Source: an uncultured Spirochaetota bacterium
GTDB taxonomy: Bacteria; Spirochaetota; Spirochaetia; SZUA-6; Fen-1364
Direction: 5' to 3'
NCBI GenBank assembly: GCA_963734545.1
Contig: CAVTHO010000006.1
Location: forward strand, 192,001 to 256,000
DNA: 64,000 bases
The notes below the pieces were generated by a model. That model saw nothing but the letters and a program-made list of their open reading frames with translations. It had not been told where the DNA came from and made no database searches. Within the stretch, counting starts at the first letter, position 1, and every line of letters starts with the position of its first letter. Both the position numbers and the translations under genes were made by a program. Positions 16,168-50,087 of this stretch are shown in pieces.

Positions 16168-17183
16168 AAGCAGTGTACGGTTTTCTCAAGTCGGTCCGGC
16201 TGACGATCGTGCTCGTCCTCGTGATTGCGGCGCTTTCCCTGGTCGCCTCCCTCGTTCCCCAGGGCAGACCCGATGCGTGGTATGGGTCGCACTACCCCCC
16301 GGCCCTCTCCGACCTTATCCGGTTCGCGGGTCTTCCCCGGTTTTTCAGCTCAGTCGGTTTTCTCGCTCCTGCCTTTCTTCTCACGTTGAACCTGGCAGTG
16401 TGCGCCGTTGACAGGATGATCCGCCGGGTGAAGAACAAGGCGAAACCGCGCTACGGACCCGACCTCGTTCACCTCGGGCTTCTCGTCCTCATTGCGGGGG
16501 GACTGGTAACGGCACTCGGACGGCAGGAGACCACGTGGTCCCTCGCCGTGGGGGAGGATGCCGCTCTCAGCTCTACCTACGCGCTGCACCTGCTGTCCCT
16601 GCAGTTTCTGAAATACGACAACGGAGCCCCGAAGGAATGGACCTCGACCGTGCGTGTCACCCGCGACGGAAATGTTGAAATCCCCTCTTTTCCCATCCGG
16701 GTGAACCAGCCGCTGCGCCTCAAGGGTCTCAGCGTCTACCAGGCGGCGTGGGAGCTGCAGGGCACCCTGGACCTGCGGGAGGCCGGGGGAGAGGCGGTGA
16801 CCGCAACCACCGGGCAGGGCTTCCCCCTTGGCGACTCGTTCTGGTACTTCGCGGAAGCGCAGAAGACCCGGGACGCATGGAGCATCGTTGCCGTGGAATA
16901 CAAGGGCAGGGAGATGAGGCCTGTCTCCACGCGCGAGCTGCGGGCGGGAGACGTGCTCGGTCCCTACACTGTGACGGGCATAACGGCCCGGGAGATCACC
17001 GGGCTGAAGGCGGTAAGTGATCCGGGTTTTGCGCCGTTTCTGGCCGCGCTGGGGATTATTGTTCTCGGGCTCTGCCTGACATTTATCCAATCGCGGTACG
17101 GGAGTACCCGTTCGGCGAGTACGCCGTACCCCGCGGATTCTGCGCCGCGGGACCCCGCGGAGTCGGGTGAGGCCGCGACATGA
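16164..17183 (+). CDS. resB: Cytochrome c biogenesis protein ResB/CcsB
   Basis: SLVPQ, LVHLGLLV, IRVNQPL.....VYQ, DPG motifs; upstream of ccsA. Confidence 0.8.
   Translation: MKAVYGFLKSVRLTIVLVLVIAALSLVASLVPQGRPDAWYGSHYPPALSDLIRFAGLPRFFSSVGFLAPAFLLTLNLAVCAVDRMIRRVKNKAKPRYGPDLVHLGLLVLIAGGLVTALGRQETTWSLAVGEDAALSSTYALHLLSLQFLKYDNGAPKEWTSTVRVTRDGNVEIPSFPIRVNQPLRLKGLSVYQAAWELQGTLDLREAGGEAVTATTGQGFPLGDSFWYFAEAQKTRDAWSIVAVEYKGREMRPVSTRELRAGDVLGPYTVTGITAREITGLKAVSDPGFAPFLAALGIIVLGLCLTFIQSRYGSTRSASTPYPADSAPRDPAESGEAAT
17089..17164. repeat. RAAT-hairpin tandem (2 units, minus-strand polarity) carrying the 26-nt double-hairpin insert between GTAC duplicates (17096-17129)
   Basis: GTAC GGGAGTACCC GTTC GGCGAGTACGCC GTAC, identical to 38993-39026. 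Confidence 0.85.
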
Positions 17184-17971
17184 CCGCAACCCTCGGTCTC
17201 CTCTGCATTGCCCTTGCCGCGGTCCTGCAGGCGGGCTTCCTCCTGAGGCGTGAAAACCGCCGCGACCCGGTCTCTCACTGGCTGCTCCTTGCCGCCGCGC
17301 TCCTGCTCTTTGCCACCCTCGCGCAGAGGAGCTTCCGGATAAGCTTCGTCGCCGTCACGAACACCTACGAGTCGCTGGTGTTTTTCTCCGCGGCAATCTG
17401 CGTGGTGCTCTTCGGTCTGCGTCTTGCGCCTCAGAACGCAGGGGCATGTCGCCGTTCGTGATGTTCGGCGCCACATTCGTGTGTCTCGCGCTCCTGATGC
17501 TTTCCTCTTCACCCCTGGCGCCCCGGGACATCCAGCCGCCCATCCCCGCCCTCCAGTCCTTCTGGCTCGTCCTGCACGTCACGTTCTCCTTCATCGGAGA
17601 GGCTTTCTTCGTCGTGAGCTTCGTCGCTGCCATCGGCCTTCCTGGCCGCGCGGAACGAGGACCGGCGCGCCGACATGGACCGGCTGATGGCCACCTCCAT
17701 CGGCATCGGGTACCCGATCTTCACGGCGGGAGCGCTCGTCTTCGGAGCCATCTGGGCGGAGACGGCGTGGGGAAGCTGGTGGAGCTGGGATCCCAAGGAG
17801 ATCTGGGCGCTGATCACGTGGCTGATCTATACCGCCTACCTGCATACGCGCCTCGTGCGGAAGATGCGCGGCAGGGTCTCGGCCGTGCTCGTCATCGTGG
17901 GGTTCCTCGCCACGCTGTTCACTTTTTTCGGCGTGAACTTCCTGCTCTCCGGGCTGCACAGCTACGGCTGA
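17180..17971 (+). CDS. ccsA: Cytochrome c biogenesis protein CcsA/ResC (frameshifts near 17445 and 17640)
   Basis: NTYESL, LQSFWLVLHV, WGSWWSWDPKE (WWD domain), YLH, GLHSY over three frames. Confidence 0.88.
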
Positions 17972-18493
17972 GACCGCGCCGCCTGCTCGAAAAGCTTCTC
18001 CAGCGCTTCGTTCGTTGGTCACCGCACGCCGCGACCACTTCCCGCGCCCACGCGACGTATTCCCGCTTTCTCCGCGCGCTCCACCCCACGGGAGGGCTCT
18101 CGGCGATGGAGCGAAGATTGGCGATCTTGTCCGCGATCTTGATCATCCGCGCACGGCGCGATTTCTTCGGGGCGCTCTCCACCTGCTGTCTCTTGCGCGA
18201 TCTCCCGGTCCAGGCGGGTGTCGTCCGTGACCTCGACGACGAGCGACGCGACATCATCCCCGAAAGCCTCGGCCAGCTCCTCGCGGTGTCGTGTCCGTGT
18301 CTTCTATCGTGTCATGCAGGAGTCCGGCCATGACCAGGGCAGGGTCGGCGCCGTCGGTGGCCTCGGCAAGGAGCAGCGCCACCTCGGTGAGATGATTGAC
18401 GTAGGGCTCCGCCTTCAGGCCCTTGCGCCGCTGCCCCGCGTGCCGGCGCGCGGCGAAATCCAGGGCCCGGGCGATACCGACGATCCCGTTCAT
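17962..18493 (-). CDS. HD-domain hydrolase, RelA/SpoT-type small alarmone hydrolase (Mesh1-like); frameshifted
   Basis: FAARRHAGQRRK...EPYVNH...AGLLHDTIEDT, then IKIADKIANL in another frame. Confidence 0.8.
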
Positions 18494-18500
18494 GCGTCTC

Positions 18501-21183: not shown

Positions 21184-21205
21184 CCGATGTCCATCCGTTT
21201 CCCCT

Positions 21206-22285: not shown

Positions 22286-22395
22286 CCGCGCCAGTGTATC
22301 CCGACTCGGCTCTGGTCCACAAGAAGACAACCGCCGCCGCGGGCCGATGATCAAAAAAGCATTCCTGCCGATACTTGTAGCAAACGGGTGCGCGC

Positions 22396-23163: not shown

Positions 23164-23171
23164 CCCTCGCG

Positions 23172-23216
23172 AAACTGCGCGGGCGACCGTGCAGCTGCAC
23201 GGAGTACCGTGCAAGG
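23172..23216 (+). repeat. Two adjacent hairpins of the repeat family
   Basis: AAAC TGCGCGG GCGA CCGTGCA GC TGCACGG AGTA CCGTGCA AGG. Confidence 0.7.
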
Positions 23217-23254
23217 ATTGCACAGCCGGGGAGAATCAGGATAGTATCTGCCCC

Positions 23255-23550
23255 ATGGATACGCCCCAGACAGTCGAGTTGACGCGCAGCGAGCGCGAGC
23301 TCCTCCTGAACATCCTTCACATCGCACCGGAAGTCGAAAAGAAGATCATTTCCTCGCGCATCACGGGCAACAGGTTTCACATCGAGTTCACCCCCAAGGA
23401 CATGGAGGGTCTGTTGAACGGCCTGGCTTCCGAGATCAATGCCACCAGCGACCGCACGATGGCCAGGGCCTACGAGGACCTCCGACAGAAGCTGGAAAAG
23501 ATCGAGGGACACTGGCGAGGCCGGGCTGCCGCGGGGAGGGGAGCGGCTGA
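23255..23550 (+). CDS. Hypothetical protein (about 98 aa; probable 1-bp frameshift before its TGA)
   Basis: Gene-like MDTPQTVELTRSERELL...; TGA at 23548 coupled to the next ATG comes in frame if one base is added. Confidence 0.55.
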
Positions 23551-24077: not shown

Positions 24078-24856
24078 AAACCCTCATTGCCTGCGGACAA
24101 TTCGCGCCCCTGCCGGGGGACATCAGCGGGAATATCGCGCGCATGGGCGGACTGGCCCGCGATGCCGCGCGGCTGGGCGCCCGCGTGCTCGTGCTTCCCG
24201 AGCTCTGCCTCTGCGGCTACCCGGAGCCCGGTGAGGCAGCGGCGCGGGCTGTTCCGGCGGACGGTCCCGAGATCAGCCGCGTCGCGGCGCATGCCCGGGA
24301 GACGGGAGTCGCGCTGTGCTTCGGGTTCGTCGAACGATCCCCTGACGGACGGCTCTGCAACAGCATGGCCTTTGTGGGCGGCCAGGACGGTCCGCGCACC
24401 GTGTACCGCAAAGTACACCTGTGGACAACGGAAAGGGCGTGGGCTGTTCCCGGGGAAAGCTTCCCGAGCTTCGACCTCGGCCCCCTGCGCCTGGGGATGT
24501 GGATCTGCTACGACACCCGGTTTCCCGAGGGGGCGCGCCGCCTGGCCCTCTCCGGGGCCACTCTCTGCCTCGTGGGTTCCGCCTGGTTCGGGCCCGCGGA
24601 CGAGTGGGAGCTCGCGCTCCGTGCACGCGCCATGGATAACGGGATATTCGTGGCCGGCGCGGCCGTGCAGGGCTCCTCAGGCGCTCTGCCGTTTCATGGG
24701 GCGAGCCTCATCATCGACCCGCATGGACGGGTCCTTGCCCGCGCCCGCGCGGACCATGACGACCTGATCGCCGCCGAGTACGATGACGAGGCGGTGAAGA
24801 CATTCCGCGCGCGCCTGCCACTCCTCGATGATCGTCGCCCCGCCACATATGCGTAG
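24074..24856 (+). CDS. Carbon-nitrogen hydrolase (nitrilase family)
   Basis: LPELC, YRKVHL, ICYDTRFPE catalytic E-K-C triad. Confidence 0.92.
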   Translation: MKTLIACGQFAPLPGDISGNIARMGGLARDAARLGARVLVLPELCLCGYPEPGEAAARAVPADGPEISRVAAHARETGVALCFGFVERSPDGRLCNSMAFVGGQDGPRTVYRKVHLWTTERAWAVPGESFPSFDLGPLRLGMWICYDTRFPEGARRLALSGATLCLVGSAWFGPADEWELALRARAMDNGIFVAGAAVQGSSGALPFHGASLIIDPHGRVLARARADHDDLIAAEYDDEAVKTFRARLPLLDDRRPATYA

Positions 24857-25619
24857 GGTCCTCCAGGAGAGCGATCTTGCCGGTCCTCTCTATGCGCACC
24901 TGGCGGACCTCGGGTACACGGTCCGCAGCGAAGTCAAAGACTGCGACATCGCCGCCGTCAAGGGCGAGGATCTCCTCATCATCGAGCTGAAGAAGACGCT
25001 GAACCTGCCGCTCCTCGTCCAGGCGGTCCGCCGGCAGCGAATGACCGATTCTGTCTACGTGGCGATCCCGCGGCCTTCCAACAAGTGGAAGTGGTGGAAG
25101 GAGAGCCGCGGCGCCCAGCACCTCCTGCGCAGGCTGGAGCTGGGCCTCATCCTGGTTTCACTGGACGCCGGCAAGCCTCCCGTGGAAATCGTTTTTCATC
25201 CGCTGCCTTTTGCGCGGAAGAAGCGCGGCACGTCACGCCGGGCCGTCCTGGAGGAGATCGCGCACAGGACCGCGGACTACAACCGGGCGGGAAGCACGCG
25301 CACGAAGCTCGCCACCGCCTACCGGGAGAATGCCATCCATATCGCCTGCTGTCTTCTCGTGCACGGCAAATCCACCCCGGCCGAGCTCCGCGCCCGGGGG
25401 ACGGGACCCAAGACACTCTCGATACTGCACTTCAATGCATACGGCTGGTTCGAACGGGTGGCGCATGCCGTGTACGATCTCTCCGCCCACGGCAAGGCCG
25501 ACCTCGCCAGCTGGCCCGCGCTCAGGAAGAAGTACCTTGCGGCCGCGAGGCGGGGTCCCGCGCGCGTCCGGGCAGAACCTCCCTGGATTGAATACTCCCC
25601 GGTGAGGGGGTATTCTTGA
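24849..25619 (+). CDS. DUF2161 putative PD-(D/E)XK phosphodiesterase
   Basis: ESDL...SEVKDCDI...IELK, TAYRENA, NAYGWFERV. Confidence 0.82.
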   Translation: MRRVLQESDLAGPLYAHLADLGYTVRSEVKDCDIAAVKGEDLLIIELKKTLNLPLLVQAVRRQRMTDSVYVAIPRPSNKWKWWKESRGAQHLLRRLELGLILVSLDAGKPPVEIVFHPLPFARKKRGTSRRAVLEEIAHRTADYNRAGSTRTKLATAYRENAIHIACCLLVHGKSTPAELRARGTGPKTLSILHFNAYGWFERVAHAVYDLSAHGKADLASWPALRKKYLAAARRGPARVRAEPPWIEYSPVRGYS

Positions 25620-25635
25620 ACGCAAGGAGACCGAG

Positions 25636-27800: not shown

Positions 27801-27879
27801 GGCCGGGGCTTTCCCCCTGCAAATATACGGCGGCCGTGACGCTTTTCCAAGTCAGTGATCCATACTATAGTGGCCGGGC

Positions 27880-29469: not shown

Positions 29470-29505
29470 CAGGCTGCCGAGGCCCTGCATCCCTTCAGCG
29501 CCCGC

Positions 29506-30312: not shown

Positions 30313-30316
30313 GACC

Positions 30317-35277: not shown

Positions 35278-35294
35278 GCGCGCGGCACCGGGGG

Positions 35295-38048: not shown

Positions 38049-38076
38049 GCCGGCCCTTCCGGCGCGTGAGGGACGC

Positions 38077-38946
38077 GTGAACCTGTCGAAACCAGTCACG
38101 GAAATCATCCCGCGGCGCTTTTCCTGCCGGACGTACCGCGAGGCTCCCCTCGAGGAGGCGCAGCGCAGGACGCTCGCTGATGCGGCGGAAGCCATGCGCG
38201 AAGGCCCGCGGGGCACGCCGGTGCGTTTTCGACTGATCGCTTCGACCGGGGAAGACGCCGAGGCGCTCCGAGGCCTGGGGACCTACGGATTCGTCAGGGG
38301 CGCGAGCGGGTTCATCGTCGGGGCAGCGGCCGCGGGTGACGCCTGGCTCGAGGACTACGGCCACGCCTTGGAAATGCTCGTCCTGCTCGCAACAGATCTC
38401 GGCCTCGGCACCTGCTGGCTCGGCGGCTCGTTCACCCGCAGCTCCTTCTCCCGCGCCATTGAAGCCAGGGACCCGGAGCGCGTGCCCGCAGTGGCGGCGC
38501 TCGGCGTGATGCCGGATCTGGATGCCGCCCGTAATGGCATTGTGCGCCGCCGGGTGGGCGGGGCCCGGCGGCTTCCGTGGGAGAGCATTTTCTTCGACGG
38601 AAAATTCGGATTACCTTTGACACCGGAGGCCGCGGGCCCATTTGCCCCGACACTGGAGATGGTGCGCCTTGCCCCGTCGGCATCCAACAAGCAGCCGTGG
38701 CGGATCGTCCGGGAGGCGAACGACTGGCATTTCTTTCTCCAGCGGACTCCGGGATATACCGGGGGTCTGGCCGGCAGACTCCTCAGGCTGGAGGACATCC
38801 AGCGCGTGGATATGGGCATTGCGATGTGTCACTTCGAGCTTGCCGCGCGGGAGCTCGGTCTTCCCGGGGCCTGGGCGGTCCGCGCGCCGCGCATCGAGCT
38901 GCCGGGTCCGCTCGTCGAATACAGCGTGACCTGGGCGATGAAATAA
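38077..38946 (+). CDS. Nitroreductase-family protein
   Basis: RRFSCRTY, GLGTCWLG, APSASNKQPW, DMGIAMCHF. Confidence 0.88.
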   Translation: MNLSKPVTEIIPRRFSCRTYREAPLEEAQRRTLADAAEAMREGPRGTPVRFRLIASTGEDAEALRGLGTYGFVRGASGFIVGAAAAGDAWLEDYGHALEMLVLLATDLGLGTCWLGGSFTRSSFSRAIEARDPERVPAVAALGVMPDLDAARNGIVRRRVGGARRLPWESIFFDGKFGLPLTPEAAGPFAPTLEMVRLAPSASNKQPWRIVREANDWHFFLQRTPGYTGGLAGRLLRLEDIQRVDMGIAMCHFELAARELGLPGAWAVRAPRIELPGPLVEYSVTWAMK

Positions 38947-38980
38947 CGGCGCTTCGAGAACGTCCCTGAGGAATAACAGA

Positions 38981-39057
38981 TAATGTCACGGAGTACGGGA
39001 GTACCCGTTCGGCGAGTACGCCGTACCGTGACCGCGAATGTCACGGAGAACCGTGAC
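38981..39057 (+). repeat. RAAT-hairpin tandem: one filled unit and one empty unit
   Basis: TAAT GTCACGG A[GTAC+26 nt]GTAC CGTGAC CGC, then GAAT GTCACGG AGAA CCGTGAC. Confidence 0.88.
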
Positions 39058-39069
39058 TGGGGAGTCTGC

Positions 39070-40797
39070 ATGCTGAAGCTTTTCAGGAATCTCAAACCCT
39101 ATACTTTTCCCGTTGCGCTCGTGGCGCTCCTTGTCGCCACCCAGACGATCACCGAGCTGTACCTGCCCACCCTGATGGCGGACATCGTGGACATGGGCAT
39201 CGTGAAAGGGGACACCCCGTATATCCTGAGAACAGGGGGCCTCATGCTGCTGGTGGCCATGGGGGGAATGGTGTGCGCGCTCGTTGCCGCGCTGTTCTCC
39301 GCGCAGGCAAGCATGGGGTTCGGCCGGGATCTTCGGAAAAAGATCTTTGCCCGGGTGGAGCAGTTCTCCCTGCACGAGTTCGACATCATCGGCACGCCTT
39401 CCCTGATCACCCGGACCACGAACGACATCACCCAGGTGCAGATGTTCACCATGATGCTGATGCGGATGATGATCATGGCCCCCCTCATGGCGGTCGGCGG
39501 CGTCATCATGGCGCTGCAAAAGGATGCGAAGCTGACATGGGTGCTCGTCGTGGTGATCCCCATCCTCGCCGCCCTGATCCTCCTCATTGCGGGCAGGGCA
39601 ATGCCGATGTTCAAGGCCATCCAGGCAAAGATCGACAGGATCAATCAGGTGCTGCGCGAAGGCCTCACCGGCGTGCGTGTCATCCGGGCCTTCAACCGCG
39701 TGGACCATGAAAAGAGGCGCTTCGACGCTGCGAATCTCGACCTTACCGACACCTCGATCAAGGTCAACAAGCTGATGGCGTTCATGATGCCGGCCATGAT
39801 GCTGCTCATGAACCTCACGGCGATTGCCATCATCTGGTTCGGCGCAAAGAGGATCGAGATCGGGGAAATGCAGATCGGCAGTCTCATGGCGTTCATCCAG
39901 TACGCCATGCAGATCCTCTTTTCCCTCCTCATGGTCTCCCTGCTCTTCATCATGCTGCCCCGCGCCTCCGCCTCGGCGGGCAGGATCAACGAGGTCCTTG
40001 CCATGACGCCGGGGATCAAGGATGTCGATACCCCCCGGAAAGCGGACAGGGAGCATGGATACATCGAGTTCAGGAACGTCACCTTCAGCTATCCGGGGGC
40101 GGAGGAACCCGCCATACGGGATGTCTCCTTCAGCGCCACACCGGGCGAAGTGACCGCGATCATCGGGGGAACCGGCGCCGGCAAGTCGACCCTCGTGAAC
40201 CTCATTCCACGGTTCTACGACGTGGCGTCGGGGAGCATCCTCGTGGACGACGTGGACATCCGCGAGATGGCGCAGGACGATCTCCGACAGAGGCTCGGTT
40301 TCGTTCCGCAGAAAGCGGTGCTGTTCAACGACACGATCGCCAGCAACATACGCTACGGCAGGGAGGATGCCACTGACGCGGAAGTGGCGCACGCCGCGGA
40401 AACCGCCCAGGCGCTGGACTTCATCCTCGCAATGCCGGACGGCTTCCAGTCTGTCATCGCGCAGGGAGGGACGAACGTGTCCGGCGGACAGAGGCAGCGG
40501 CTGGCAATCGCCCGTGCCCTGGTGAGGAGACCGGAGATTTACATCTTCGACGACACCTTCTCGGCGCTGGATTTCAAGACGGACGCGAAGCTGCGCGCCG
40601 CGCTCCGGAGGGAGACCGGGGATTCGACGGTGATCATCGTTGCGCAGCGGGTCAACACGGTCATGGACGCGGACAGGATCATCGTGGTGGACGATGGGCG
40701 CGTGGTGGGCATGGGCACGCACCGGGAGCTGATCGGCACATGCGAGGTCTACCGTGAAATCGTCTCCTCGCAGCTTTCCGAGGAGGAGCTGGCATGA
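39070..40797 (+). CDS. Heterodimeric ABC exporter subunit (TMD+NBD, degenerate site)
   Basis: 6 TM segments, GGTGAGKST, VSGGQ, IFDD. Confidence 0.93.
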   Translation: MLKLFRNLKPYTFPVALVALLVATQTITELYLPTLMADIVDMGIVKGDTPYILRTGGLMLLVAMGGMVCALVAALFSAQASMGFGRDLRKKIFARVEQFSLHEFDIIGTPSLITRTTNDITQVQMFTMMLMRMMIMAPLMAVGGVIMALQKDAKLTWVLVVVIPILAALILLIAGRAMPMFKAIQAKIDRINQVLREGLTGVRVIRAFNRVDHEKRRFDAANLDLTDTSIKVNKLMAFMMPAMMLLMNLTAIAIIWFGAKRIEIGEMQIGSLMAFIQYAMQILFSLLMVSLLFIMLPRASASAGRINEVLAMTPGIKDVDTPRKADREHGYIEFRNVTFSYPGAEEPAIRDVSFSATPGEVTAIIGGTGAGKSTLVNLIPRFYDVASGSILVDDVDIREMAQDDLRQRLGFVPQKAVLFNDTIASNIRYGREDATDAEVAHAAETAQALDFILAMPDGFQSVIAQGGTNVSGGQRQRLAIARALVRRPEIYIFDDTFSALDFKTDAKLRAALRRETGDSTVIIVAQRVNTVMDADRIIVVDDGRVVGMGTHRELIGTCEVYREIVSSQLSEEELA

Positions 40798-42731
40798 GCG
40801 ACGGCCGCGGAATCGGGCAGAGACAGCCGGCCGGTGCAGGCGCGCCCGGCACACGGCCGCCTGGGCCGGGAGGTCATGGAAGGGGAGGCCCGATGGGGGG
40901 CGGACCCATGGCGGGATTCGGGGTTCCGGTGGAGAAGCCCAGGAACTTCGGGGGCTCTCTGCGGAGGCTTGTTCGCTATCTCAAGCCCCGCACGGCGCCG
41001 CTCATCGCCGTGTTCCTGCTGGCCATCCTGAGCACCGTGTTCGCCATCTTCGCGCCGAAAGTAATGGGGAACGCCACGACCCGGATCTTCGAAGGAATGC
41101 TCGGCAGAATGACGCACGTACCCGGTGCCGGCATCGATTTCGGATTCATCGGAAGGACCGTCGTGCTCCTGATCGGCCTGTACACCGTGAGCGCGGTCTT
41201 CAGCTACATTCAGCAATTCATCATGGCGGGGATTGCGCAAAAAACAGTGTACGACATGCGGCGGGACGTGAACGAGAAGCTCAGCCGGCTGCCGCTGAAG
41301 TTCCACGACGGCCGCACGCATGGGGAGATCATGAGTCGTTTCACGAACGACATGGACAATATCGCCGCCACCCTGCAGCAGAGCCTCACGCAGCTCATCA
41401 CCTCGGCCGTGACGATCGTCGGGGTCATCGTCATGATGCTCACGATCAGCCCCCTGCTGACGCTCATCACGATCGTGGTTCTCCCCCTGAGCTTCATCAT
41501 GACACGGTTCATCGCGCCGCGATCCCAGAGGCATTTCAAGGAGCAGTGGAAGCACCTGGGACAGCTCAACGGCCACGTGGAGGAGATGTACACGGGACAC
41601 AGTATCGTGAAGGCATTCGGCCGCGAGCGAAAATCCATAGAGAAGTTCAATGACACGAACGAGAAGCTCTACCAGGCAAGCTGGCGTGCGCAGTTCGTCT
41701 CCGGTCTCCTGTTCCCCCTCATGACCTTCATCAACAACATCGGCTACGTGGCGGTGGCGGTGGCCGGCGGGATCATGGTCACCGGCAGGGCGATCGCCAT
41801 CGGGGACATACAGGCGTTCATCCAGTACTCGCGGCAGTTCAGCATGCCGATCGCGCAGGTGGCCAATATCGCCAATGTCCTTCAGAGCACGGTCGCCTCC
41901 GCCGAGCGCGTCTTCGAGCTGCTCGACGAGCAGGAGGAGGTGCCTGACGCTGCGGACGCCCGCGTCCTCTCCTCTGTCCGGGGGGATGTCCGGTTCGAGA
42001 ATGTGCGCTTCAGCTACAAGGAGGATGTGCCCCTCATCGAGGGAATGAATCTCGATGTCAGGCAGGGTGAGACGGTGGCCATCGTGGGGCCCACCGGGGC
42101 GGGAAAGACCACCCTGGTGAACCTCCTCATGCGCTTCTACGATATCCAGGGGGGCAGGATCACCATTGACGGCCGGGATATTCGCGAGATACGGCGCGGG
42201 AACCTGCGCTGCACGTTCGGCATGGTGCTGCAGGACACCTGGCTGTTCAACGGCACCATCCGGGACAACATCGCGTACGGGCGGGACGAGGTCAGCGACG
42301 AGGAGGTCAGGCAGGCGGCCGTCACGGCTCATGCGGACCACTTCATCCGCACCCTCCCGGACGGCTACCACACGCTGCTCAACGAGGAGGCATCCAACAT
42401 CTCCCAGGGCCAGAGGCAGCTCCTGACCATTGCCCGCGCCGTGCTCATCGATCCGGCCATTCTCATACTGGACGAGGCGACGAGCTCCGTGGACACGAGG
42501 ACCGAGGTGCTGATCCAGAAGGCGATGGCCACCCTGATGAAAGGGCGGACGAGCTTCGTCATCGCGCACCGGCTCTCCACGATCCGGGACGCGAAGCTGA
42601 TCCTCGTGATGAACCACGGCGCGATCATCGAGACCGGCACGCACAAGGAGCTCCTGGCCCGCGGCGGCTTCTACGCGGAGCTCTACAACAGCCAGTTCAC
42701 CGGGGCGACACTGGAAGAGGAGGCGGTCTAG
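40794..42731 (+). CDS. Heterodimeric ABC exporter subunit (TMD+NBD, consensus site)
   Basis: GPTGAGKTT, ISQGQ, ILDEATS, AHRL; ATGA overlap. Confidence 0.93.
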   Translation: MSDGRGIGQRQPAGAGAPGTRPPGPGGHGRGGPMGGGPMAGFGVPVEKPRNFGGSLRRLVRYLKPRTAPLIAVFLLAILSTVFAIFAPKVMGNATTRIFEGMLGRMTHVPGAGIDFGFIGRTVVLLIGLYTVSAVFSYIQQFIMAGIAQKTVYDMRRDVNEKLSRLPLKFHDGRTHGEIMSRFTNDMDNIAATLQQSLTQLITSAVTIVGVIVMMLTISPLLTLITIVVLPLSFIMTRFIAPRSQRHFKEQWKHLGQLNGHVEEMYTGHSIVKAFGRERKSIEKFNDTNEKLYQASWRAQFVSGLLFPLMTFINNIGYVAVAVAGGIMVTGRAIAIGDIQAFIQYSRQFSMPIAQVANIANVLQSTVASAERVFELLDEQEEVPDAADARVLSSVRGDVRFENVRFSYKEDVPLIEGMNLDVRQGETVAIVGPTGAGKTTLVNLLMRFYDIQGGRITIDGRDIREIRRGNLRCTFGMVLQDTWLFNGTIRDNIAYGRDEVSDEEVRQAAVTAHADHFIRTLPDGYHTLLNEEASNISQGQRQLLTIARAVLIDPAILILDEATSSVDTRTEVLIQKAMATLMKGRTSFVIAHRLSTIRDAKLILVMNHGAIIETGTHKELLARGGFYAELYNSQFTGATLEEEAV

Positions 42732-42739
42732 GCCTGCTG

Positions 42740-42768
42740 TTGACAGCCGGCGGGCTGCCGGGTACGTT
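42740..42768 (+). promoter_or_regulatory. Promoter TTGACA-N17-TACGTT
   Basis: Hexamers ending 10 nt upstream of ATG 42779. Confidence 0.55.
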
Positions 42769-42778
42769 CAGGCCATCA

Positions 42779-43685
42779 ATGAAAAGCACCAAGCGAGATC
42801 ATAGGCAGGGCGCGCGAGCTCGGTGTGGGCCTGCCGGCGTTCAATATCGCCCATCTGCCCATGACGGAGCCGGTCATCCGGGCGGTGCGGGACCAGGATT
42901 CCTTTGCCCTCGTGGAGGTGTCACGGATCGACTGGGTCAAGTTCGGCGCAAAGAGCCTCGCCGCTGTCATGGAGGAGTACCGCAAGTGGGACGACCCCCG
43001 GCACGTGCGCATCCACCTCGACCACGTTCCGGTGATCGACGAGGACCATGAGAAGGTGGACTACCGCGCAATCATCGAGGAGGCGCTCTCCGTCGGCTAC
43101 CAGTCCGTCATGATCGACGCCTCGCGTCTCTCCCTGGAGGAGAATATCAGCACCACGCGCGAGATCGCGGAGCTTGCCCACGCGTCCGGCATTCCCGTCG
43201 AGGCGGAGCTTGGTGCCGTGCTGGGCCACGAGGAAGGGCCGCTGCCTCCCTACGAGGAGCTTTTCAAGTCCGGCAAGGGCTTTACGCGCAAGGAAGAGGC
43301 GGCGCGATTCGTGCGCGAATCGGGTTGTGACTGGCTCTCGGTGGCCATCGGCAACATACATGGCGCGGTCGGGGAAGCGACAAAGGATCAGAAGAAGCCC
43401 GAAGCGAGGCTTTCTCTGTCCCATCTCGAGATCCTCGCCGGCGTAACGGGCATCCCGCTGGTGCTGCACGGCGGCAGCGGGATCAAGCAGGCGGACATGC
43501 TCGCGTCGATGAAGAAGGGCATTGCGAAGGTCAACGTGGGCACGGAGATCCGCCAGGCATACGAGCAGGCGCTGAAGGACCGGGGCAGCGTGACGGCAGC
43601 GCAGGACGCGGTCTATGCGCGCACCGTTTCCCTGATCAAGGACTGGTTCAGCCTGACCGGCATCCGGGCCCGGATCCTCGACTGA
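42779..43685 (+). CDS. Class II fructose/tagatose-bisphosphate aldolase (frameshift near 42795)
   Basis: PAFNI, HLDH, SVMIDAS, VEAELG, AIGNIHG, LVLHGGSG. Confidence 0.9.
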
Positions 43686-43691
43686 GCCGCG

Positions 43692-45201
43692 TCACACGGC
43701 GCGCAGATAGTCCTTCATGAGCGGCCAGAGCTCCCGGTAGCGCCCGTGCCTCTCCCGGTAGAGGCGCTGGCTGACCGGTTCCGGCTCGAATCTCTCTCCC
43801 AGGCTCACCATGGCGCGCACGCCTTCCGCTATGGATGCAAACACTCCGATTCCTGCGCCTGCCAGGATGGCGGCCCCGAGACAGCCGGCTTCAGCGACCC
43901 GGGCGCGCACCATCGGGCTTGCCGAGGATGTCGGCGCGTGATCTGCAGCCACGCATCCGACTTGCTGCCCCCGCCCACGGCGCGCAGCTCCTTCATGGCG
44001 ATTCCGGTCTCCGCGATCGAATCCACGAGCTCCTTGTGATAGAAGACGACCCCTTCCATGATTCCTTTCAGAATGTCTCCCCGGGTGGTATCCAGCTTCA
44101 GCCCGACGATCACGCCGGAAGAATCAGTGACGAACTCCGGGGGGCCCGTGACCGTGAAGTGCGGGAGCACGAATACGCTGCGAAGGGCCGGCCGGTATCT
44201 CGCTGATCAGGTCCGCGTACACGTCCCTGCCCGATTTCTCCGCGGCCTCCTTGTCGGCCCGGGCAAATGTGTCCCGGTACCACTTCAGGAGCAGCCCTCC
44301 CTGGTTGTAGATAAAGCTGACGAACCGTCCGGGCACCGCGTGGTGTTCCGTGTTCAGGCCCCACCGCATCATGATTTCCGGTGTCTTGCGCCCCGTGAAG
44401 ACCGGCACGATTGTCAGGTAGGTCCCCATGCCGCTCATGCCGAACCCGGCATCCGTGACGCCGCAGCCGAGCGCGTTGGCGCACTGGTCGTGCGAGCCCG
44501 CCACGATCGCGGTGCTCGTCGGCGAGGCCCAGCTCCTCCGCAATCGGACCGGAAACGCTGCCGATCCGTGTTCCCGCGGGGACGGGATCGGGAAGCTTCG
44601 AAAGATCGATGCCCGCCGATGCCCGCCGATCTCCCTTGACCACGCACAGGCGTCCACGTCGAAAAGGAGGGTGCGGTTGGCGAGGGAATAGTCGACGGCG
44701 GGCTCGGCGCCGAGCATGAAGGAGACAAAGCCGCTCCACAGGAGGAACTTCCACGCTCCCGCGTAGATCTCGCGGGGTATGGTCCCTGATCCACATCAGC
44801 TTCGGAAGACTGAACTGGATCCCGAGGACGTTCCCGTTGATCCGGTAGAGCTTCTCGGCTCCGATGCCGGTTTCCAGCCGGGGAAGATACTCCTCCCCCC
44901 GGCTGTCGATCATGAGGAGCGAGGGGCCGAGGATGCGCCGGTCCCGGGAGACCGGGACCATGGCCTCACCCATCGAGGAAACGGAGAGGGCCTTGACCGG
45001 GTCCCCCGCCGCGCCGCTCACCGCGCTGCGGATCGATTTTCTCACCCGGTCCCACACCTCTGTCGGATCCAGCTCCGACCAGCCCGGCCGCGGACGCCGG
45101 ATGTCGTACTCGTCGTACGCGAATGAGAGCGGGTGTCCCGTCTCGGAGAATACGGCCGCCTTGCAGCCCGTTGTCCCGACGTCTATGCCGAGGAGACTCA
45201 T
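43692..45201 (-). CDS. FGGY carbohydrate kinase (xylulokinase-like); several frameshifts
   Basis: GIDVGTTGCK, GSHDQ, GGGSKS, LGAAILAG across fragments. Confidence 0.87.
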
Positions 45202-45248
45202 TCGCCTATACCACTTCCCCGGCAGCAAGTTGTCAAGCCACAAGGCCC

Positions 45249-45350
45249 GAATCCGCGGGGTACGCGAGTACGCGTTCCGCGCGAACGCGGAACTGCGCGG
45301 TGTACCGTGCAAGGTATCGCGGCGCCAAATCCACGGAATACCGTGGCGCG
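45249..45350 (+). repeat. RAAT-hairpin tandem; first unit carries a 50-nt triple-hairpin insert, second unit empty
   Basis: GAAT CCGCGG G GTAC [GCGAGTACGC GTTC CGCGCGAACGCG GAAC TGCGCGGTGTACCGTGCA AG] GTAT CGCGG CGCC AAAT CCACGG AATA CCGTGG CGCG. Confidence 0.8.
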
Positions 45351-45405
45351 GATTACTCTGGACTTTCGCTGCCGGCGCGTGTACCATGGCGCAAAAAGGC
45401 AGACC

Positions 45406-46431
45406 ATGACGAAGAACCCGAAGCGCGCGGAGGTTGCCCGACTTGCGGGCGTCTCGGAATCGACCGTTTCACGCTCGCTGAATGATTCGCCCCACATCTC
45501 TTCCGTGAGCAAGAAGAAGGTGCGGGATGCGGCAAAGACGCTCGGCTACATCCCCTCGCGGCAGGCTGCCCTGTTCGCCTGGAACCGCACCTTTACTCTC
45601 GGGTTCGTCGTTCCCTCGTACGCCTCGTTCCCGCCCTTTTCCCGCGCGTATTTCCCGGCCCTGCTGGACGGGGCCGTGCTCGGCGCAAAGCAGCTCGGGT
45701 TCACGATCGCCATCGTGCTGGACCAGGTGGACGTAGAGACACGGGACTACAGCGCCCTTATCCGCAGCAGGACCTTCGACGGTCTTCTGTTCGCCGTGAC
45801 CAAGGCGGACTACACCCCTTTTCACAGGCTGAAGAAAAACAAGATCCCGTTCGTCCTGGTCAACAACTACTGCCCGGGGCTCGATTCCGTGGACGCGCGG
45901 CCCGAGCCGGGAATGCGCAAGGCATTTGCCCATGCCGCCTCCATGGGCCATTCACACATCGGCTATGTCACCGGCGACATGGTGTACAGGAACGCAATCG
46001 ACAGGCTGGATGTCTTCAAGCGCCTCGCGTGCGAGTTCGGAATGCGGACGGATATCGCCCAGGGAGACTTCTCCAAGACCTCCGGGTATCGCGAAACGGG
46101 CAGGCTCATGGAAGCAAAGGACCCCCCCACGCTCATCATGACGAGCTCTGACCGGGAGGCTCTCGGCGTGCTGCAGTATTGCAGCGAACGCGGGCTGCGC
46201 GTGCCCCGTGACCTGAGCGTGATCGGGTACGACAACCTGCACCCGGCCCAGGACGTCACCCCGGCGCTCTCCACGGTGGACAACCCCGTCAGCCGCACCG
46301 GTTGGGACGCGGCCCAGCTCCTCATCGGCATCATCAACGGCTACGTGACCGAGCCCGTCCAGCACTGGCTGAACACGGATTTTGTGGCCCGCGGGTCCAC
46401 CGCGGCGGCGCCATCGGGGAGCGCGCGGTGA
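45406..46431 (+). CDS. LacI-family regulator
   Basis: VARLAGVSESTVSRSLN HTH, VPRDLSVIGYD. Confidence 0.93.
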   Translation: MTKNPKRAEVARLAGVSESTVSRSLNDSPHISSVSKKKVRDAAKTLGYIPSRQAALFAWNRTFTLGFVVPSYASFPPFSRAYFPALLDGAVLGAKQLGFTIAIVLDQVDVETRDYSALIRSRTFDGLLFAVTKADYTPFHRLKKNKIPFVLVNNYCPGLDSVDARPEPGMRKAFAHAASMGHSHIGYVTGDMVYRNAIDRLDVFKRLACEFGMRTDIAQGDFSKTSGYRETGRLMEAKDPPTLIMTSSDREALGVLQYCSERGLRVPRDLSVIGYDNLHPAQDVTPALSTVDNPVSRTGWDAAQLLIGIINGYVTEPVQHWLNTDFVARGSTAAAPSGSAR

Positions 46432-47549
46432 GCACGGTACCCGCTCCGGTGAGGATCGGGATCGTCGGCTCGGGAAGCATGGCGGAGTACCACGTCAAGA
46501 AGTTCGCAGCGCTCCCCGGCGTGCTCGTTTCCGCCTGCTCGGACAGGAATGCGTCGCATGCGCGCGATTTCGCGCATCGTCTGCGCATACCGCGCTGGTA
46601 TGCGTCTGCCCGGGAGCTGGCAGGCTCGGGCGATGTCGATTGCGCCTCGATCGCCGTTGTGGACTCGGGCCATGCAGCCGCCGCGCTCGCCATTCTGCAA
46701 GGCGGCATCCCCGTGTTCGCGGAAAAACCTCTCGCGCGCACCGTGCCGGAGGCTGAACAGCTCCTGGCCGCTTCCCGCGCGGCAGGCGTCCCCGCCCTCG
46801 TCAACTTCTCCAAGCGGAACGCTCCGGCCGTTGCGCTGGCGCGGCGCCTCGTGGCAGATGGGCGGATCGGCAGGGTGACGGGCGGGTGCTTCACCTACCT
46901 GCAGAGCTGGCTTCTACAAGACTCGTGGGGCAAGTGGGACGCCACCTCCCGCTGGCGCTGGCGTCTGTCTCCGGAGACGAGCACGGACGGCGTCATCGGT
47001 GACCTGTTGAGCCATCTCATCGACATGGTGAGATTCGTGCTGGGAGAGATCGAATCCGCCACCTGCGCCGCGACCTTTCTGACACCTGACCCGGACTCCC
47101 CGGCCAGCCCGGGAGCCGCGGACTCCTGCGCGGCGCAATTCCGGCTGCAGTCGCAGGCGTTGATCTCGGCCCGCGCAAGCTGGCGCGCGGCAGGGTACCT
47201 GGACGCTCTCGCGTTCGATCTCGAGGGAGACAAGGGAAGCCTCACCGCCGACCTTGCCGCATCCCGTGACACGGTGAAGCTGCGGGAAAAGGCCGGCGGC
47301 GACTGGACCGAGATTCACGCGGAGCCATGCCCGTCCACCTACGAGCAGTTCATTGCCGCGGTCCGGGGCGGGGAACGCGCGGGCCCGTGCTTCGAGGAGG
47401 GAGTCGCCGTCCAGCGCGTCATCGACGCCTGCTCACGATCGACGCACCGCGTCGGCGCGGAACGCGTACTCGCGTACCCGGCGGATTCCGCATCGACGTA
47501 CCCGGCGGATTCCGCATCGACGTACCCGGCGGATTCCGCGCGGGGGTGA
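46428..47549 (+). CDS. Gfo/Idh/MocA oxidoreductase
   Basis: GIVGSG, EKPL, YLQSW, GDLLSH; C-terminal tail encoded by repeats. Confidence 0.88.
   Translation: MSTVPAPVRIGIVGSGSMAEYHVKKFAALPGVLVSACSDRNASHARDFAHRLRIPRWYASARELAGSGDVDCASIAVVDSGHAAAALAILQGGIPVFAEKPLARTVPEAEQLLAASRAAGVPALVNFSKRNAPAVALARRLVADGRIGRVTGGCFTYLQSWLLQDSWGKWDATSRWRWRLSPETSTDGVIGDLLSHLIDMVRFVLGEIESATCAATFLTPDPDSPASPGAADSCAAQFRLQSQALISARASWRAAGYLDALAFDLEGDKGSLTADLAASRDTVKLREKAGGDWTEIHAEPCPSTYEQFIAAVRGGERAGPCFEEGVAVQRVIDACSRSTHRVGAERVLAYPADSASTYPADSASTYPADSARG
47438..47539 (-). repeat. 3 x 24-bp tandem of the RAAT family, one unit carrying the 26-nt insert
   Basis: (ATCGAC GTAC CCGGCGGATTCCGC)x3 on +; insert 47448-47473 between GCAC and GTAC. 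Confidence 0.88.
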
Positions 47550-47552
47550 CGG

Positions 47553-48437
47553 ATGATTCACCCACGAATCGGCACCCTCGTGAAAGGAGACAAGGACCCG
47601 GCGCGCGCAATCCGCGAGCTCGCCCCCCTTGGCTTCGAAAGCTTTTCCATCACCTTCTGGCAGTCTCTCGGCGCGGTCGATCCGACCGAGCTGGCACGCG
47701 AGGTGCGCGCCGCGGCAGGGGAGACCGGCACGGTAATCAGCTCGGTCAGCATCTACGGCGACATCCTGCGCGGCGACCCTTCCGCGGAGGAGACGCTCCA
47801 CGGCTACGAGGCTCTCATCGACTCTGCCCCTGCGTTTGGGACCGACATAGTCAGCGGCTTCACGGGGAGGATCCCGGACCGCCCGATTGAAGAATCGATC
47901 GGGCCCTGGAAATCCGTATTCCAAAGGCTCCTGGCGCGCGCGGAAGACAAGGGCGTGCGTCTTGCCATGGAGAACTGCCGCATGGGCGGCACCTGGAAGA
48001 CAGGGCGTTGGAACCTGGCAATCGGGCCGGACGCCTGGGAAGCGCTTTTCAACGAGATACCGTCTGCCGCCCTCGGCCTGGAGTGGGAGCCGTGCCATCA
48101 GCTCCTGTGCCTGGCTGACCCGGTGGCCCAGCTTCAGCGCTGGGCGCCGAAAGTGTTTCACGTACACGGCAAGGATGCCCACATCGACTGGGAGGTCATT
48201 CGCGCGCACGGCGTGTTTGGAAAAGCAAAATGGGCAGTGCAAAGGACGGCGGGCTTTGGAGACTCGGATTGGACGACCATCATTGCCGCCCTGGCGAAGG
48301 CCGGCTACGAAGGCGCAATAGACATCGAAGGCTGGAATGACCCCGTGTTCAGGGATGAGCGTGAAATCGAGGGCCAGGTCCAGGGCATGCGGCACCTGAA
48401 AGCGTGCAGAGAACTGGCCCTAGGAAAATCCCCGTAG
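47553..48437 (+). CDS. Sugar phosphate isomerase/epimerase (xylose-isomerase-like TIM barrel)
   Basis: AMEN, EWEPCH, HVHGKD, DIEG metal ligands. Confidence 0.85.
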   Translation: MIHPRIGTLVKGDKDPARAIRELAPLGFESFSITFWQSLGAVDPTELAREVRAAAGETGTVISSVSIYGDILRGDPSAEETLHGYEALIDSAPAFGTDIVSGFTGRIPDRPIEESIGPWKSVFQRLLARAEDKGVRLAMENCRMGGTWKTGRWNLAIGPDAWEALFNEIPSAALGLEWEPCHQLLCLADPVAQLQRWAPKVFHVHGKDAHIDWEVIRAHGVFGKAKWAVQRTAGFGDSDWTTIIAALAKAGYEGAIDIEGWNDPVFRDEREIEGQVQGMRHLKACRELALGKSP

Positions 48438-48494
48438 TCCCCGGTTTCAAATAAGTTCTCATTTCGAAAGGAATTACGAACAAACAAAAAAACC

Positions 48495-48557
48495 TTGCAT
48501 TTTCACCAAGGCCGGTGTACGATGCCACGGTGTTTATGCACGCGCGTGCATAAACAC
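48495..48557 (+). promoter_or_regulatory. Promoter TTGCAT-N17-TACGAT and perfect 28-bp palindromic LacI-type operator (48530-48557)
   Basis: GTGTTTATGCACGCGCGTGCATAAACAC at the predicted +1, with a CG-centred core; LacI gene nearby. Confidence 0.78.
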
Positions 48558-48620
48558 GTCGTGGGACATCGGTTGAAAACCGATGTCTTCATAATTTCCG
48601 CATCCGAAGGAGGATGGACC

Positions 48621-49943
48621 ATGAAGCGTTTGAGCATCGTTCTGTCCACGCTCGTTCTGCTCTTGGCTGCGACCACGGTGTTCGCGGCGCCCGTCAAGAA
48701 CCTGACCATCTTGTGGGCACAGTGGGATCCCGCTGATTACCTTCAGCAGCTGGGCAACGAATACCAGAAGGCCACCGGCATCAGCGTGAAGATCATCCAG
48801 GAGCCCTGGGGATCATTCCAGGATCGGTTCCAGACCGCCATGGCGGCAAAGGGAACCGAATGGGATATGGTCATCGGAGACAGCCAGTGGCTCGGAACCG
48901 GCGCCACCAGCGGGCAGTACATCGATCTGACCAATTTCATGAACAGCAACAACCTGACAAAAACGGTGACCCCTGCCACGTTGAAGTTCTACGGTGAATA
49001 CCCCATGAACTCCGGCAAGTACTGGGCGTATCCGACCGAGGGTGATGCCTGCGGGTTCGCCTATCGTACGGACCTCTTCAATGCCCCCGCTGAGAAGGCA
49101 GCCTTCCAGAAGAAGTACGGCTATGCGCTTGCCGCACCGAAGACGTGGGCACAGTTCCGTGACATTGCAGAGTTCTTCACCCGGCCCGACAAGGGCATCT
49201 GGGGCGCTGCTATCTACACGCAGAAGGACTATGACGCCCTTACCATGGGAGTGGAAACCGCGCTGTTCTCCTGGGGCGTGGACTGGCAGGACAAGAACAA
49301 CAACGTCCTGGGAGTGGTGAACTCGAAGAAGGCCATCGATGCGATCCAGTTCTATCACGACCTGTACCAGAAGTTCTCGCCTCCTGGCCTTTCCAATGCC
49401 TTCTTCAATGAAACCAACGATGCGTTCATCAGCGGCAAGGCGGCCATGGCGATGAACTACTTCGCATTCCTTCCGTCCCTGTTGAACAAGGGCACGAACC
49501 CGAACTACTACAACAAGGTCGGATACTTCGTGAACCCTGCCGGCCCTTACGGTGACCGCTACGCTGCTCTGGGAGGCCAGGGCATGAGCGTCATCAGCTA
49601 CATCGACGCGGATCGCCAGAAGGCGTCCCTTGATTTCATCAAGTGGTTTGCCCAGGACAAGACGCAGCAGAGGTGGGCGGAGCTGGGCGGCTACTCCTGC
49701 AACATCAAGACCCTGAAGAGCGATGCGTTCCTGAAGGGACAGCCCTACAACCCCGCATTTGCGGAGACCATGACCTTCGTGAAGGACTTCTGGAACATCC
49801 CGGTCTACGGACCGCTCCTCCAGTCGGCCCAGAAATACCTGCACCGCTATGTCGTGGAAAACGTCGGCACTGCCAAGGAAGCCCTGGATTCCATGGCAAA
49901 GGAGCAGGACGCGGTCCTGCGGGAAAACGGCTACATCAAATAG
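48621..49943 (+). CDS. Sugar ABC transporter substrate-binding protein (CUT1)
   Basis: Signal peptide ending VFA, GDSQW, YRTDLF; GGAGG RBS. Confidence 0.9.
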   Translation: MKRLSIVLSTLVLLLAATTVFAAPVKNLTILWAQWDPADYLQQLGNEYQKATGISVKIIQEPWGSFQDRFQTAMAAKGTEWDMVIGDSQWLGTGATSGQYIDLTNFMNSNNLTKTVTPATLKFYGEYPMNSGKYWAYPTEGDACGFAYRTDLFNAPAEKAAFQKKYGYALAAPKTWAQFRDIAEFFTRPDKGIWGAAIYTQKDYDALTMGVETALFSWGVDWQDKNNNVLGVVNSKKAIDAIQFYHDLYQKFSPPGLSNAFFNETNDAFISGKAAMAMNYFAFLPSLLNKGTNPNYYNKVGYFVNPAGPYGDRYAALGGQGMSVISYIDADRQKASLDFIKWFAQDKTQQRWAELGGYSCNIKTLKSDAFLKGQPYNPAFAETMTFVKDFWNIPVYGPLLQSAQKYLHRYVVENVGTAKEALDSMAKEQDAVLRENGYIK

Positions 49944-49960
49944 AGAAGAACCTGTGAATG

Positions 49961-49984
49961 GGGGAGGTGGGCAGCCGCCTCCCC
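49961..49984 (+). terminator. Hairpin after the SBP gene (terminator or mRNA stabiliser)
   Basis: GGGGAGGTGG-GCAG-CCGCCTCCCC. Confidence 0.55.
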
Positions 49985-50005
49985 GCTCTCTGGCCTGAAC
50001 AAAAA

Positions 50006-50087
50006 GTGCGCCGACGTGCTCGGCGGATTTGGTGCGCCGACGTACGGGGTATTCCCCGAACGGGTACTCCCGTACTCGGCGGATTTG
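50006..50087 (-). repeat. 2 x 26-bp RAAT-family tandem, one unit carrying the 26-nt insert with GTAC duplication
   Basis: On minus strand: AAAT CCGCCG A GTAC [GGGAGTACCC GTTC GGGGAATACCCC] GTAC GTCGG CGCACC AAAT CCGCCG AGCA CGTCGG. Confidence 0.88.

Follow-up and report, generated by a model that had tools for sequence, protein, structure and literature searches.

A 30-nt double hairpin with a defined target rule in the loops of REP-like hairpins of an uncultured Spirochaetota lineage

What are the small paired hairpins that sit inside the loops of larger hairpins in the DNA of an uncultured Spirochaetota bacterium, and how did they come to be there? The question is raised by a stretch of 64,000 nucleotides (the window; G000:C6:192001-256000), in which an earlier note had described a 26-nt, structure-conserved double-hairpin insert with a GTAC duplication and had inferred that it is mobilised in trans. 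The genome that holds the window, G000, comprises 5.14 Mb in 10 contigs (62-63% G+C, 89% completeness); the labels G001 to G020 denote relatives of its genus. The insert is a real, lineage-specific double hairpin of 30 nt that is insertion-polymorphic and follows a defined target rule. On balance, we regard it as a non-autonomous DNA element inserted into the loops of hairpins that resemble repetitive extragenic palindromic (REP) sequences, at 5'-RT^MC-3' (the caret marks the point of insertion).

An exact structural search of the window returned five copies (17096+, 38993+, 45260+, 47444- and 50042-; sites 1 to 5, Table 1), which are those of the earlier note, with the sequences quoted there; a degenerate 26-mer (up to three mismatches) matched five times in the window and not once in each of 100 dinucleotide shuffles. 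The element reads AC-[26]-GT and consists of two tandem modules of 15 nt, in each of which a stem of 5 bp closes a loop of 4 nt and a T follows, i.e. [ACGGG-AGTA-CCCGT]T[CGGCG-AGTA-CGCCG]T. In the three-way-junction fold described below, both small stems have 5 bp, the flanking AC pairing with the GT of the GTTC linker, and the linker's final C with the G in the terminal GT. Single 15-nt modules with the same flanks were found 42 times against about 39 expected by our own estimate, i.e. at chance level, whereas doubles numbered 41 and triples were not found. Independent movement of the pieces between the internal GTAC sites was not seen either, the three pieces being nearly equal in number (19, 15 and 20).

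The boundaries were set by a census of 142 copies collected without constraint on the flanks. Left and right flanks were GTAC/GTAC in 54 copies, ATAC/GTCC in 34, GTAC/GTCC in 14, ATAC/GTAC in eight and ATAC/ATAC in one; the left junction ends in AC in 136 copies, the right junction begins with GT in 136, and the two flanks of a copy differ from each other in 86. Empty sister units and orthologues carry a single RTMC, which reads GTAC, ATAC, GTCC or ATCC. From the unequal flanks and these empty sites it follows that AC...GT is carried by the element and that no target is duplicated; insertion of a 30-nt AC...GT element between the T and the A/C of RT^MC is the simplest account. The 26-nt unit and the GTAC duplication of the earlier note are therefore replaced, the left flank being GTAC or ATAC and the right one GTAC or GTCC (ATAC in one of the 142). 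The left flanks (GTAC 24, ATAC 13) match in proportion the second position of the host loop (G 66%, A 34%).

At the non-palindromic RT^CC sites, 54 copies lie in one orientation and none is reversed (GGAC..GTAY); at the palindromic GT^AC both orientations occur relative to the AATCC..GCGCC flanks of the host (7:7). The fixed orientation at RT^CC excludes random blunt ligation and points to a strand-specific insertion reaction.

The element strongly prefers hairpin loops as sites: in 29 of 47 copies the site is flanked by arms of 4 bp or more, compared with 6.6% of all 13,370 GTAC sites in the genome, and no genome-wide avoidance of GTAC was seen among these 13,370 sites (observed/expected 0.92). 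The commonest 12-mer of G000 is the tip of a host hairpin, GCGGAGTACCGC, and about 500 hairpins with a G-RRTA-C loop are present in this genome (consensus AAATCC-stem-RRTA-stem-GCGCC); the host arrays are direct tandems of one to five units with a period of 24-27 nt. The arms vary widely: the 64 copies of family 1 have at least 54 different pairs. In G017 (C2:221467-225368), ten units of a related hairpin, with TAGT in the loop in place of AGTA, form an array upstream of an FGGY-kinase orthologue. The element also lands in a second host family, whose core is GGCC-RTCC-(C/A)TGGCC. Members of this family are dispersed throughout G000, where the core was also read as CTTTCGGCC-ATCC-(C/A)TGGCCT, with the motif CTCGCC-RTCC-(C/A)TGG; they often stand in tandem, the period being about 45-83 nt.

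Structure was said in the earlier note to be conserved by compensatory change, and the stems bear this out. A set of 139 loci, collected with an anchor that imposes no complementarity, gave 69 distinct 34-mers, in which 474 of 483 stem cells are paired (98.1%; in 500 shuffles the mean was 83.8% and the highest value 87%), and both-sided changes affect four of the seven stem pairs; the variants form few subfamilies, so that independent events are fewer than cells, and hairpin-templated correction could yield compensatory changes without selection. The single G·T pair among the 483 stem cells and the presence of copies in both orientations relative to genes argue for a conserved structure that acts at the level of DNA rather than RNA.

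The T-shaped three-way junction of the earlier note holds in part. When the five window copies were folded as single-stranded DNA, this junction was the minimum-energy fold in three (z -3.5 to -4.5); of the other two, 50030-50086 folds better than its shuffles (z -4.0) in a different shape, and 47433-47489 does not (z -0.6). Complementary arms do flank all five copies, as expected for a position in host hairpin loops.

The element's own loops recreate its target, as had been proposed, and they are used. Ten copies of a variant with a GCTC linker were found, each placed at the GT^AC in the first of the two hairpins that make up a standard copy, giving 60-nt composites that themselves lie in host loops. 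The composite moves as one unit: in G002 a composite occupies a site at which G000 has an empty GT^CC (..GAC GT^CC ATG..). Two different element variants stand 30 nt apart in G014, and three copies with a 30-nt period in G020.

Copies of the element in G000 number about 50-60. The structural pattern (any 3-bp and 4-bp stems, GTTC linker) gave 41 matches, about 39 of them family members, compared with 2-8 in five whole-genome dinucleotide shuffles, so that the copy number is above that of shuffled sequence in the genome as in the window; one or two stem mismatches added 12 family-like copies, and the GCTC-linker subfamily another 11. A sequence pattern matched 28 times in G000 and was found in 14 of 20 other genomes of the genus, in one of four genomes from other genera of the family, and in none of 36 from other families of the order; its backwards control matched nowhere. 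Among the matches listed in a wider named collection, 77 of 80 are titled uncultured Spirochaetota, Spirochaetia or Spirochaetaceae. Matches outside the lineage (one each in Gemmatimonadales, Krasilnikovia and Acidobacteriota) are without stems or flanks and were rejected as chance. The same 26-mer dominates across species with a gene identity of only 65-90%. The numbers of inserts and of host hairpins are uncoupled: G017, G001, G005 and G019 have 103, 83, 79 and 55 host hairpins and no inserts, and G006 and G020 have 14 and six host hairpins with 18 and 13 inserts.

The gene contexts of the inserts in G000 are ++ in 20 cases, -- in 11, +- in 12 and -+ in three; copies are thus depleted between divergent genes (3 of 46), though such pairs make up 21% of all gene pairs. 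Copies were also observed within the ribosomal-protein/SecY operon (G000:C9:74500-79300), where the gap between the genes of L18 and S5 holds a composite without its second hairpin, and that between the genes of S13 and S11 a degenerate copy.

The existence of filled and empty alleles was examined at 12 sites of G000 with usable flanks in G014 and/or G002, or, for one window site, in G013; C5:506984, whose flanks have no match in the relatives, lies outside this set. Exact empty orthologues were found at five of the 12, with the same host hairpin and a difference of exactly 30 nt, and together with the reciprocal 60-nt composite in G002 they confirm the filled and empty alleles that the earlier note had read from sister units. 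The element is a discrete unit whose presence or absence is exact to the base, in hairpin loops that existed before it. At C3:390401, within a UvrD-like gene, G000 is filled (one unit plus exactly 30 nt, the insert encoding YGSTRSASTPY), G014 and G002 have empty units, one in the former (..GGAAT^ACCGTGAC) and three of 27 nt in the latter, and more than seven outgroup species lack the hairpin. With the two nearest relatives empty and the outgroups without the hairpin, a gain in G000 appears more parsimonious (one event, whereas loss needs two). At C8:513240, G014 has three empty units with the loops GGTA, GATA and GATA, and G000 reads ATAC..GTAC, the GATA loop matching the left flank ATAC. Empty orthologues are also present in G002 at C8:511927 and C6:410315, and in G014 at C6:129004, the last with two compensatory arm differences.

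Of the remaining sites, C8:519485 and C5:525762 are ambiguous, as the unit number differs; window site 1 and C9:234735 are filled in G014 as well as in G000; and at three the relatives have no hairpin (window site 2, the window site compared with G013, and C4:711803, where G002 was masked). As for the hosts themselves, the arms at C6:129004 read GCGCGGA..CGCGG in G000 and TCACGGA..CGTG in G014, a compensatory pair from which it follows that the hairpin is maintained at a single locus across species; the host unit at C6:410315 is an exact 27-nt indel with CCAC / CCCAC at its borders, which G002 and G000 have and G014 lacks.

The explanation that we favour would run as follows. The element would be inserted into, and probably also removed from, the loops of larger REP-like hairpins at 5'-RT^MC-3', usually at the GT^AC of a G-RRTA-C loop, with the RT^CC of the second hairpin family also used. 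The AC at its start and the GT at its end restore RT^MC at both junctions, which mimics a GTAC duplication, and these restored sites would permit exact loss. Its own AGT^AC loops could be hit again, and the resulting 60-nt composite would then move as one unit. The difference of exactly 30 or 60 nt at orthologous sites, the motif, the orientation (fixed at non-palindromic targets, either way at the palindromic one), the preference for hairpin loops and the uncoupling of copy numbers from those of the hosts are observed facts. From them we infer that the reaction takes place on extruded single-stranded hairpins and that a trans-acting nicking-joining enzyme cuts after T in the style of the IS200/IS605- or Rep-type HUH enzymes, while belonging to none of the families tested; filled host units would in addition be copied whole. 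In its strongest form, which we offer as possible but doubtful, the element would be the smallest self-contained transposable unit known, moved by a nicking-joining enzyme of an unrecognised family, distinct from Y1/RAYT and IS110 and without a link to TnpB, which would recognise the loop of a DNA hairpin and cut single strands at 5'-RT^MC-3'.

Several results weigh against this explanation, the foremost of them being that no enzyme that moves the element was found in the families and genomes searched. A Pfam scan of the 51 open reading frames (ORFs) of the window gave no transposase or recombinase domain, as the earlier note had said of the window; its further proposal of an enzyme acting in trans found no candidate, and part of the spread is of whole filled host units. 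G000 has one Y1_Tnp gene, classic IS200-like and with its own unrelated hairpins, and Y1_Tnp does not track the element across the genus: the Y1-free genomes G002, G006 and G012 (96-97% complete) have 35, 18 and nine copies, and G017 has five Y1 genes and no copy. IS110 is likewise without correlation to the element across the genus, and TnpB is present in none of the 21 genomes. Rep_OBD and Relaxase gave no match in G000; nor did Viral_Rep and Rep_1, whose controls matched nowhere, so that this result has little weight. Y2_Tnp gave one match of 31 positions (E = 0.001). Hairpins stand on both sides of 14 genes; among the 13 of these that were scanned, 11 are housekeeping genes and two have no Pfam match. 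The genes between close inverted copy pairs in the relatives include DapF, along with ORFs of an ordinary kind. When an autonomous parent was sought between a first and a second hairpin that each stand alone, only variants came up, and one pair of lone hairpins 3.2 kb apart encloses ribosomal-protein and SecY genes.

The allele data add further points on the same side. C8:513240 is filled in G000 and G002 and empty in G014, which fits loss better than gain. Contigs from four wetland runs were aligned over 38500-51000, covering four window sites; among the rows listed no 30-nt excision was seen, and all the differences in these rows are of a whole unit or a whole array. At site 2, one contig of run X3 lacks one 25-nt unit at 39040-39057; at site 4, contigs from three of the four runs have a single C in place of 47438-47486; and at site 5, contigs from three of the four lack 50008-50091 and read AG there. 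Relatives share the filled unit or lack the host at sites 1 and 2: the orthologous resB-ccsA junction of G014 holds the same filled unit as site 1, this junction is without the hairpin in G002 and more than ten other species, and the whole array of about 95 nt at site 2 is absent from G014. The syntenic intergenic region of G013 is without an array like that at site 3. Between element variant and host orientation there is a weak link (p = 0.036), the filled unit of the UvrD-like gene and the unit at site 2 share 93% identity over 58 nt, the RT^CC copies may include co-amplified ones that are not independent events, and no bias was seen relative to the sign of the local GC skew (25 against 22, draft contigs being a weak proxy). 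From the whole-unit differences between strains, the link of variant to orientation and the shared flanks of paralogous units, it appears that filled host units are also copied whole. Whole host arrays come and go from strain to strain, and some transfers may be short-homology conversion between paralogous units.

The same points favour an explanation without a dedicated enzyme, in which the block is copied by template switching or short-homology gene conversion at stalled hairpins and lost by slippage between GTAC repeats, the element being a loop variant that rides on the REP-like family. The flanks shared by filled units of one host type, the variant-orientation link, the differences by whole units or arrays at sites 1, 2, 4 and 5 (as numbered here) and the failure of the searches made to find a mobilising gene would all be accounted for. 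Direct GTAC repeats around a strong hairpin are, furthermore, a classic substrate for slippage deletion. We nevertheless hold it to be rather unlikely, since the block stands in so many different arm pairs and also in a second, unrelated host family and in its own loop, where the shared sequence amounts to 1-4 nt and the junctions are still exact; the orientation at RT^CC does not vary, breakpoints do not fall at the internal GTAC sites, and insert abundance is uncoupled from host abundance. A functional module under selection (a protein-binding or RNA-stability motif), immobile by itself and brought in only as part of entire host units, with the empty units as deletion derivatives, would explain the high conservation of the 26-mer across species, the compensatory stems, the depletion between divergent genes (as for REP elements) and the filled units that are orthologous in G014. 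It is improbable in view of the UvrD-like gene, where one gain replaces two losses, of the genomes with 55-103 host hairpins and no insert, and of copies that lie in both orientations relative to genes and hosts, some of them inside coding sequence; the near absence of G·T pairs is against a constraint on RNA only. Capture of a double-stranded restriction fragment, with a blunt GT^AC cutter freeing an AC...GT piece that is ligated into blunt breaks, would give just such ends and such a target. This we judge highly improbable: it predicts both orientations at RT^CC, insertions concentrate in the few percent of GTAC sites that lie within hairpin loops, GTAC is not depleted, and the two internal GTAC sites would be cut, whereas the sub-fragments were not found alone.

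If the element is indeed inserted into host loops, it should be compared with the mobile and repetitive DNA already described. REP sequences and REPINs with their RAYTs are short, GC-rich and non-autonomous hairpin repeats of high copy number (PMC3116915, PMC3337134, PMC2817692, PMC3733652). Like these, the host and guest hairpins of G000 are short GC-rich palindromes, mainly extragenic and in high copy (about 500 hosts and 50-60 inserts); they are lineage-specific, persist over speciation, keep their stems by compensatory change and are non-autonomous. Unlike a REPIN, the element is made of two direct tandem hairpins instead of an inverted doublet, in 30 nt, and it sits inside the loop of another repeat; the host consensus has no GTAG or CGTC tag, the element ends in AC and GT, and there is no cognate Y1, with no Y1 gene in the three element-rich genomes named above. 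The host arrays are direct tandems and thus differ from bacterial interspersed mosaic elements, which alternate in orientation with defined linkers. A classical miniature inverted-repeat transposable element differs likewise, as only the AC/GT termini are inverted here, the flanks are unequal in most copies, and the empty sites are single RTMC.

Gene-less derivatives of IS200/IS605 elements are known as palindrome-associated transposable elements, and the IS200/IS605 elements themselves show a strand bias against GC skew. Aspects of their single-strand transposition are treated in PMC3201880, PMC3597680 and PMC5934647. The present element shares with them a hairpin at each end, a short target motif without duplication, a fixed orientation and the possibility of exact excision. 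It differs in that its stems include the terminal bases and leave no spacer for guide sequences of the IS608 type, in being about ten times smaller, in having its target inside a hairpin loop, and in the lack of Y1 correlation, of TnpB and of a visible GC-skew strand bias. The element works most like IS200/IS605 single-strand transposition and resembles REP/REPIN sequences in ecology, and it falls outside the defining tests of both.

Rep-type HUH enzymes nick the origin hairpin loops of single-stranded DNA viruses and rolling-circle plasmids and rejoin them reversibly. The putative cut in a hairpin loop, after the T that precedes AC, is similar, a likeness that rests on three bases; unlike in those systems a replicon is absent here, and the searches of G000 detected no gene of the Rep families, two of the three search controls having matched nowhere. 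Rickettsia palindromic elements, of 100-150 nt, also land in frame inside protein-coding genes. The present insert is likewise coding in the UvrD-like helicase and in the C-terminal tail of a ResB-like protein; the Rickettsia elements are longer, belong to a different lineage and have no nested loop architecture. Insertion sequences such as IS1397 insert in REP loops. Targeting of REP hairpins by insertion sequences is a subject of PMC1525189 as well. In these cases, including ISPpu9, the REP-type hairpin itself is the landing site, as it is here; those insertion sequences are, however, 1-2 kb long and have their own transposase, whereas the guest here is a gene-less 30-nt piece with the loop type of its host. 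Rfam gave no match at the gathering score in the window, and nothing on the element at E values up to 1 in the two loci that hold sites 1 and 2; a published description of the nested 30-nt element was not found in a full-text literature search confined to main texts, and neither GTAC nor nesting was mentioned under the terms probed in the main texts of PMC3733652 and PMC12306157. The earlier note's view of an uncatalogued family is thus sustained.

If the favoured reading is true, the lower size limit of a mobile DNA unit would fall to 30 nt, with two 5-bp hairpins and a 4-base site as the recognition information; with an enzyme of an unrecognised family, every insertion would recreate the target, giving nested, fractal trees of hairpins and 10-residue protein inserts. 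The exact rule at the junctions (RT^MC without duplication, and an orientation that the site determines) is a concrete substrate for finding the enzyme, and an enzyme able to place a defined piece of single-stranded DNA in the loop of a hairpin would be useful as a tool. The matter bears on how REP-like repeats persist and diversify without RAYT and on repeat-driven protein change (UvrD-like, ResB-like); as the lineage is uncultured, testing depends on heterologous work.

The copies, host units and sister units of the window are collected in Table 1. Host-type hairpins match 10 times in the window, against 0.92 expected. An insert-free sister had been described beside every copy: sisters with an intact GTAC are present at 47492-47539 only, those at three other sites have altered loops (GGAC, GAAC and GTGC), and the units neighbouring 45260 have different stems. 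GTAC on both sides, similarly, applies to three of the five sites; 45260 has GTAC/GAAC, and 47444 has GTAC/GTGC.

Table 1. Copies of the 30-nt element, their host units and insert-free hairpins in the window
Feature	Coordinates	Strand	Description
Copy 1, 30-nt element	17098..17127	+	AC-(GGGAGTACCC GTTC GGCGAGTACGCC)-GT; folds as three-way junction, z -3.5
Host arms of copy 1	17091-17095 and 17130-17136		half-sites GT 17096-17097 and AC 17128-17129
Insert-free sister hairpin CCGCGGGACCCCGCGG	17145..17160		loop changed to GGAC; unit absent from G014
Single further empty host unit	23197-23212		
Copy 2	38995..39024	+	core identical to copy 1; host arms 38985-38992 and 39026-39032; fold z -4.5
Insert-free sister hairpin GTCACGG-AGAA-CCGTGAC	39040..39057		stems as in the host of copy 2; loop without GTAC
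Copy 3	45262..45291	+	subfamily with GCG and CGCG stems and CGAA loop; 3' end GA, not GT
Host arms of copy 3	45253-45259 and 45294-45300		fold z -4.5
Empty hairpins beside copy 3, other stems	45295-45310; 45331-45346		loop TGTA, imperfect; CCACGG-AATA-CCGTGG
Copy 4	47446..47475	-	subfamily of copy 3; in first unit (47438-47491) of three-unit array, 24-nt period
Two insert-free sister units, 24 nt each	47492..47539		GTAC intact in both
Insert-free sister unit, 26 nt	50006..50031		loop is GTGC
Copy 5	50044..50073	-	second hairpin GGGG-AATA-CCCC; host unit 50032-50087
Array of three empty host hairpins GCACGG-AGTA-CCGTGC	56869..56934		25-nt period

Several further observations were made in passing. 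The Y1 gene of G000 (C4:158130-161489) is flanked by CCACCGCC-NNN-GGCGGTGG hairpins, in a stretch that looks lower in G+C by eye, and an ORF at window 24798-25616 has a DUF2161 domain (putative PD-(D/E)XK phosphodiesterase). Three places in the window may be assembly frameshifts: a class-III aminotransferase that appears split into adjacent ORFs (13292-14781), a GFO/IDH/MocA enzyme with its N- and C-terminal domains in adjacent ORFs (59974-61239), and a ccsA-like ATG at 17181, at which no long ORF starts. The ResB-like ORF (16017-17183) has no stop before the repeat at site 1, so that the filled hairpin and its sister code for roughly the last 30 residues of the protein (SRYGSTRSASTPYPADSAPRDPAESGEAAT); the ResB-like proteins of relatives without the array end about ten residues past the conserved LTFIQ. 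Similarly, a GFO/IDH/MocA oxidoreductase ORF (46212-47549) runs through the three-unit array at site 4 to a stop at 47549, and three divides each of the lengths involved, those of the unit (24 nt), of the insert (30 nt) and of the change in the strain variant (net -48 nt).

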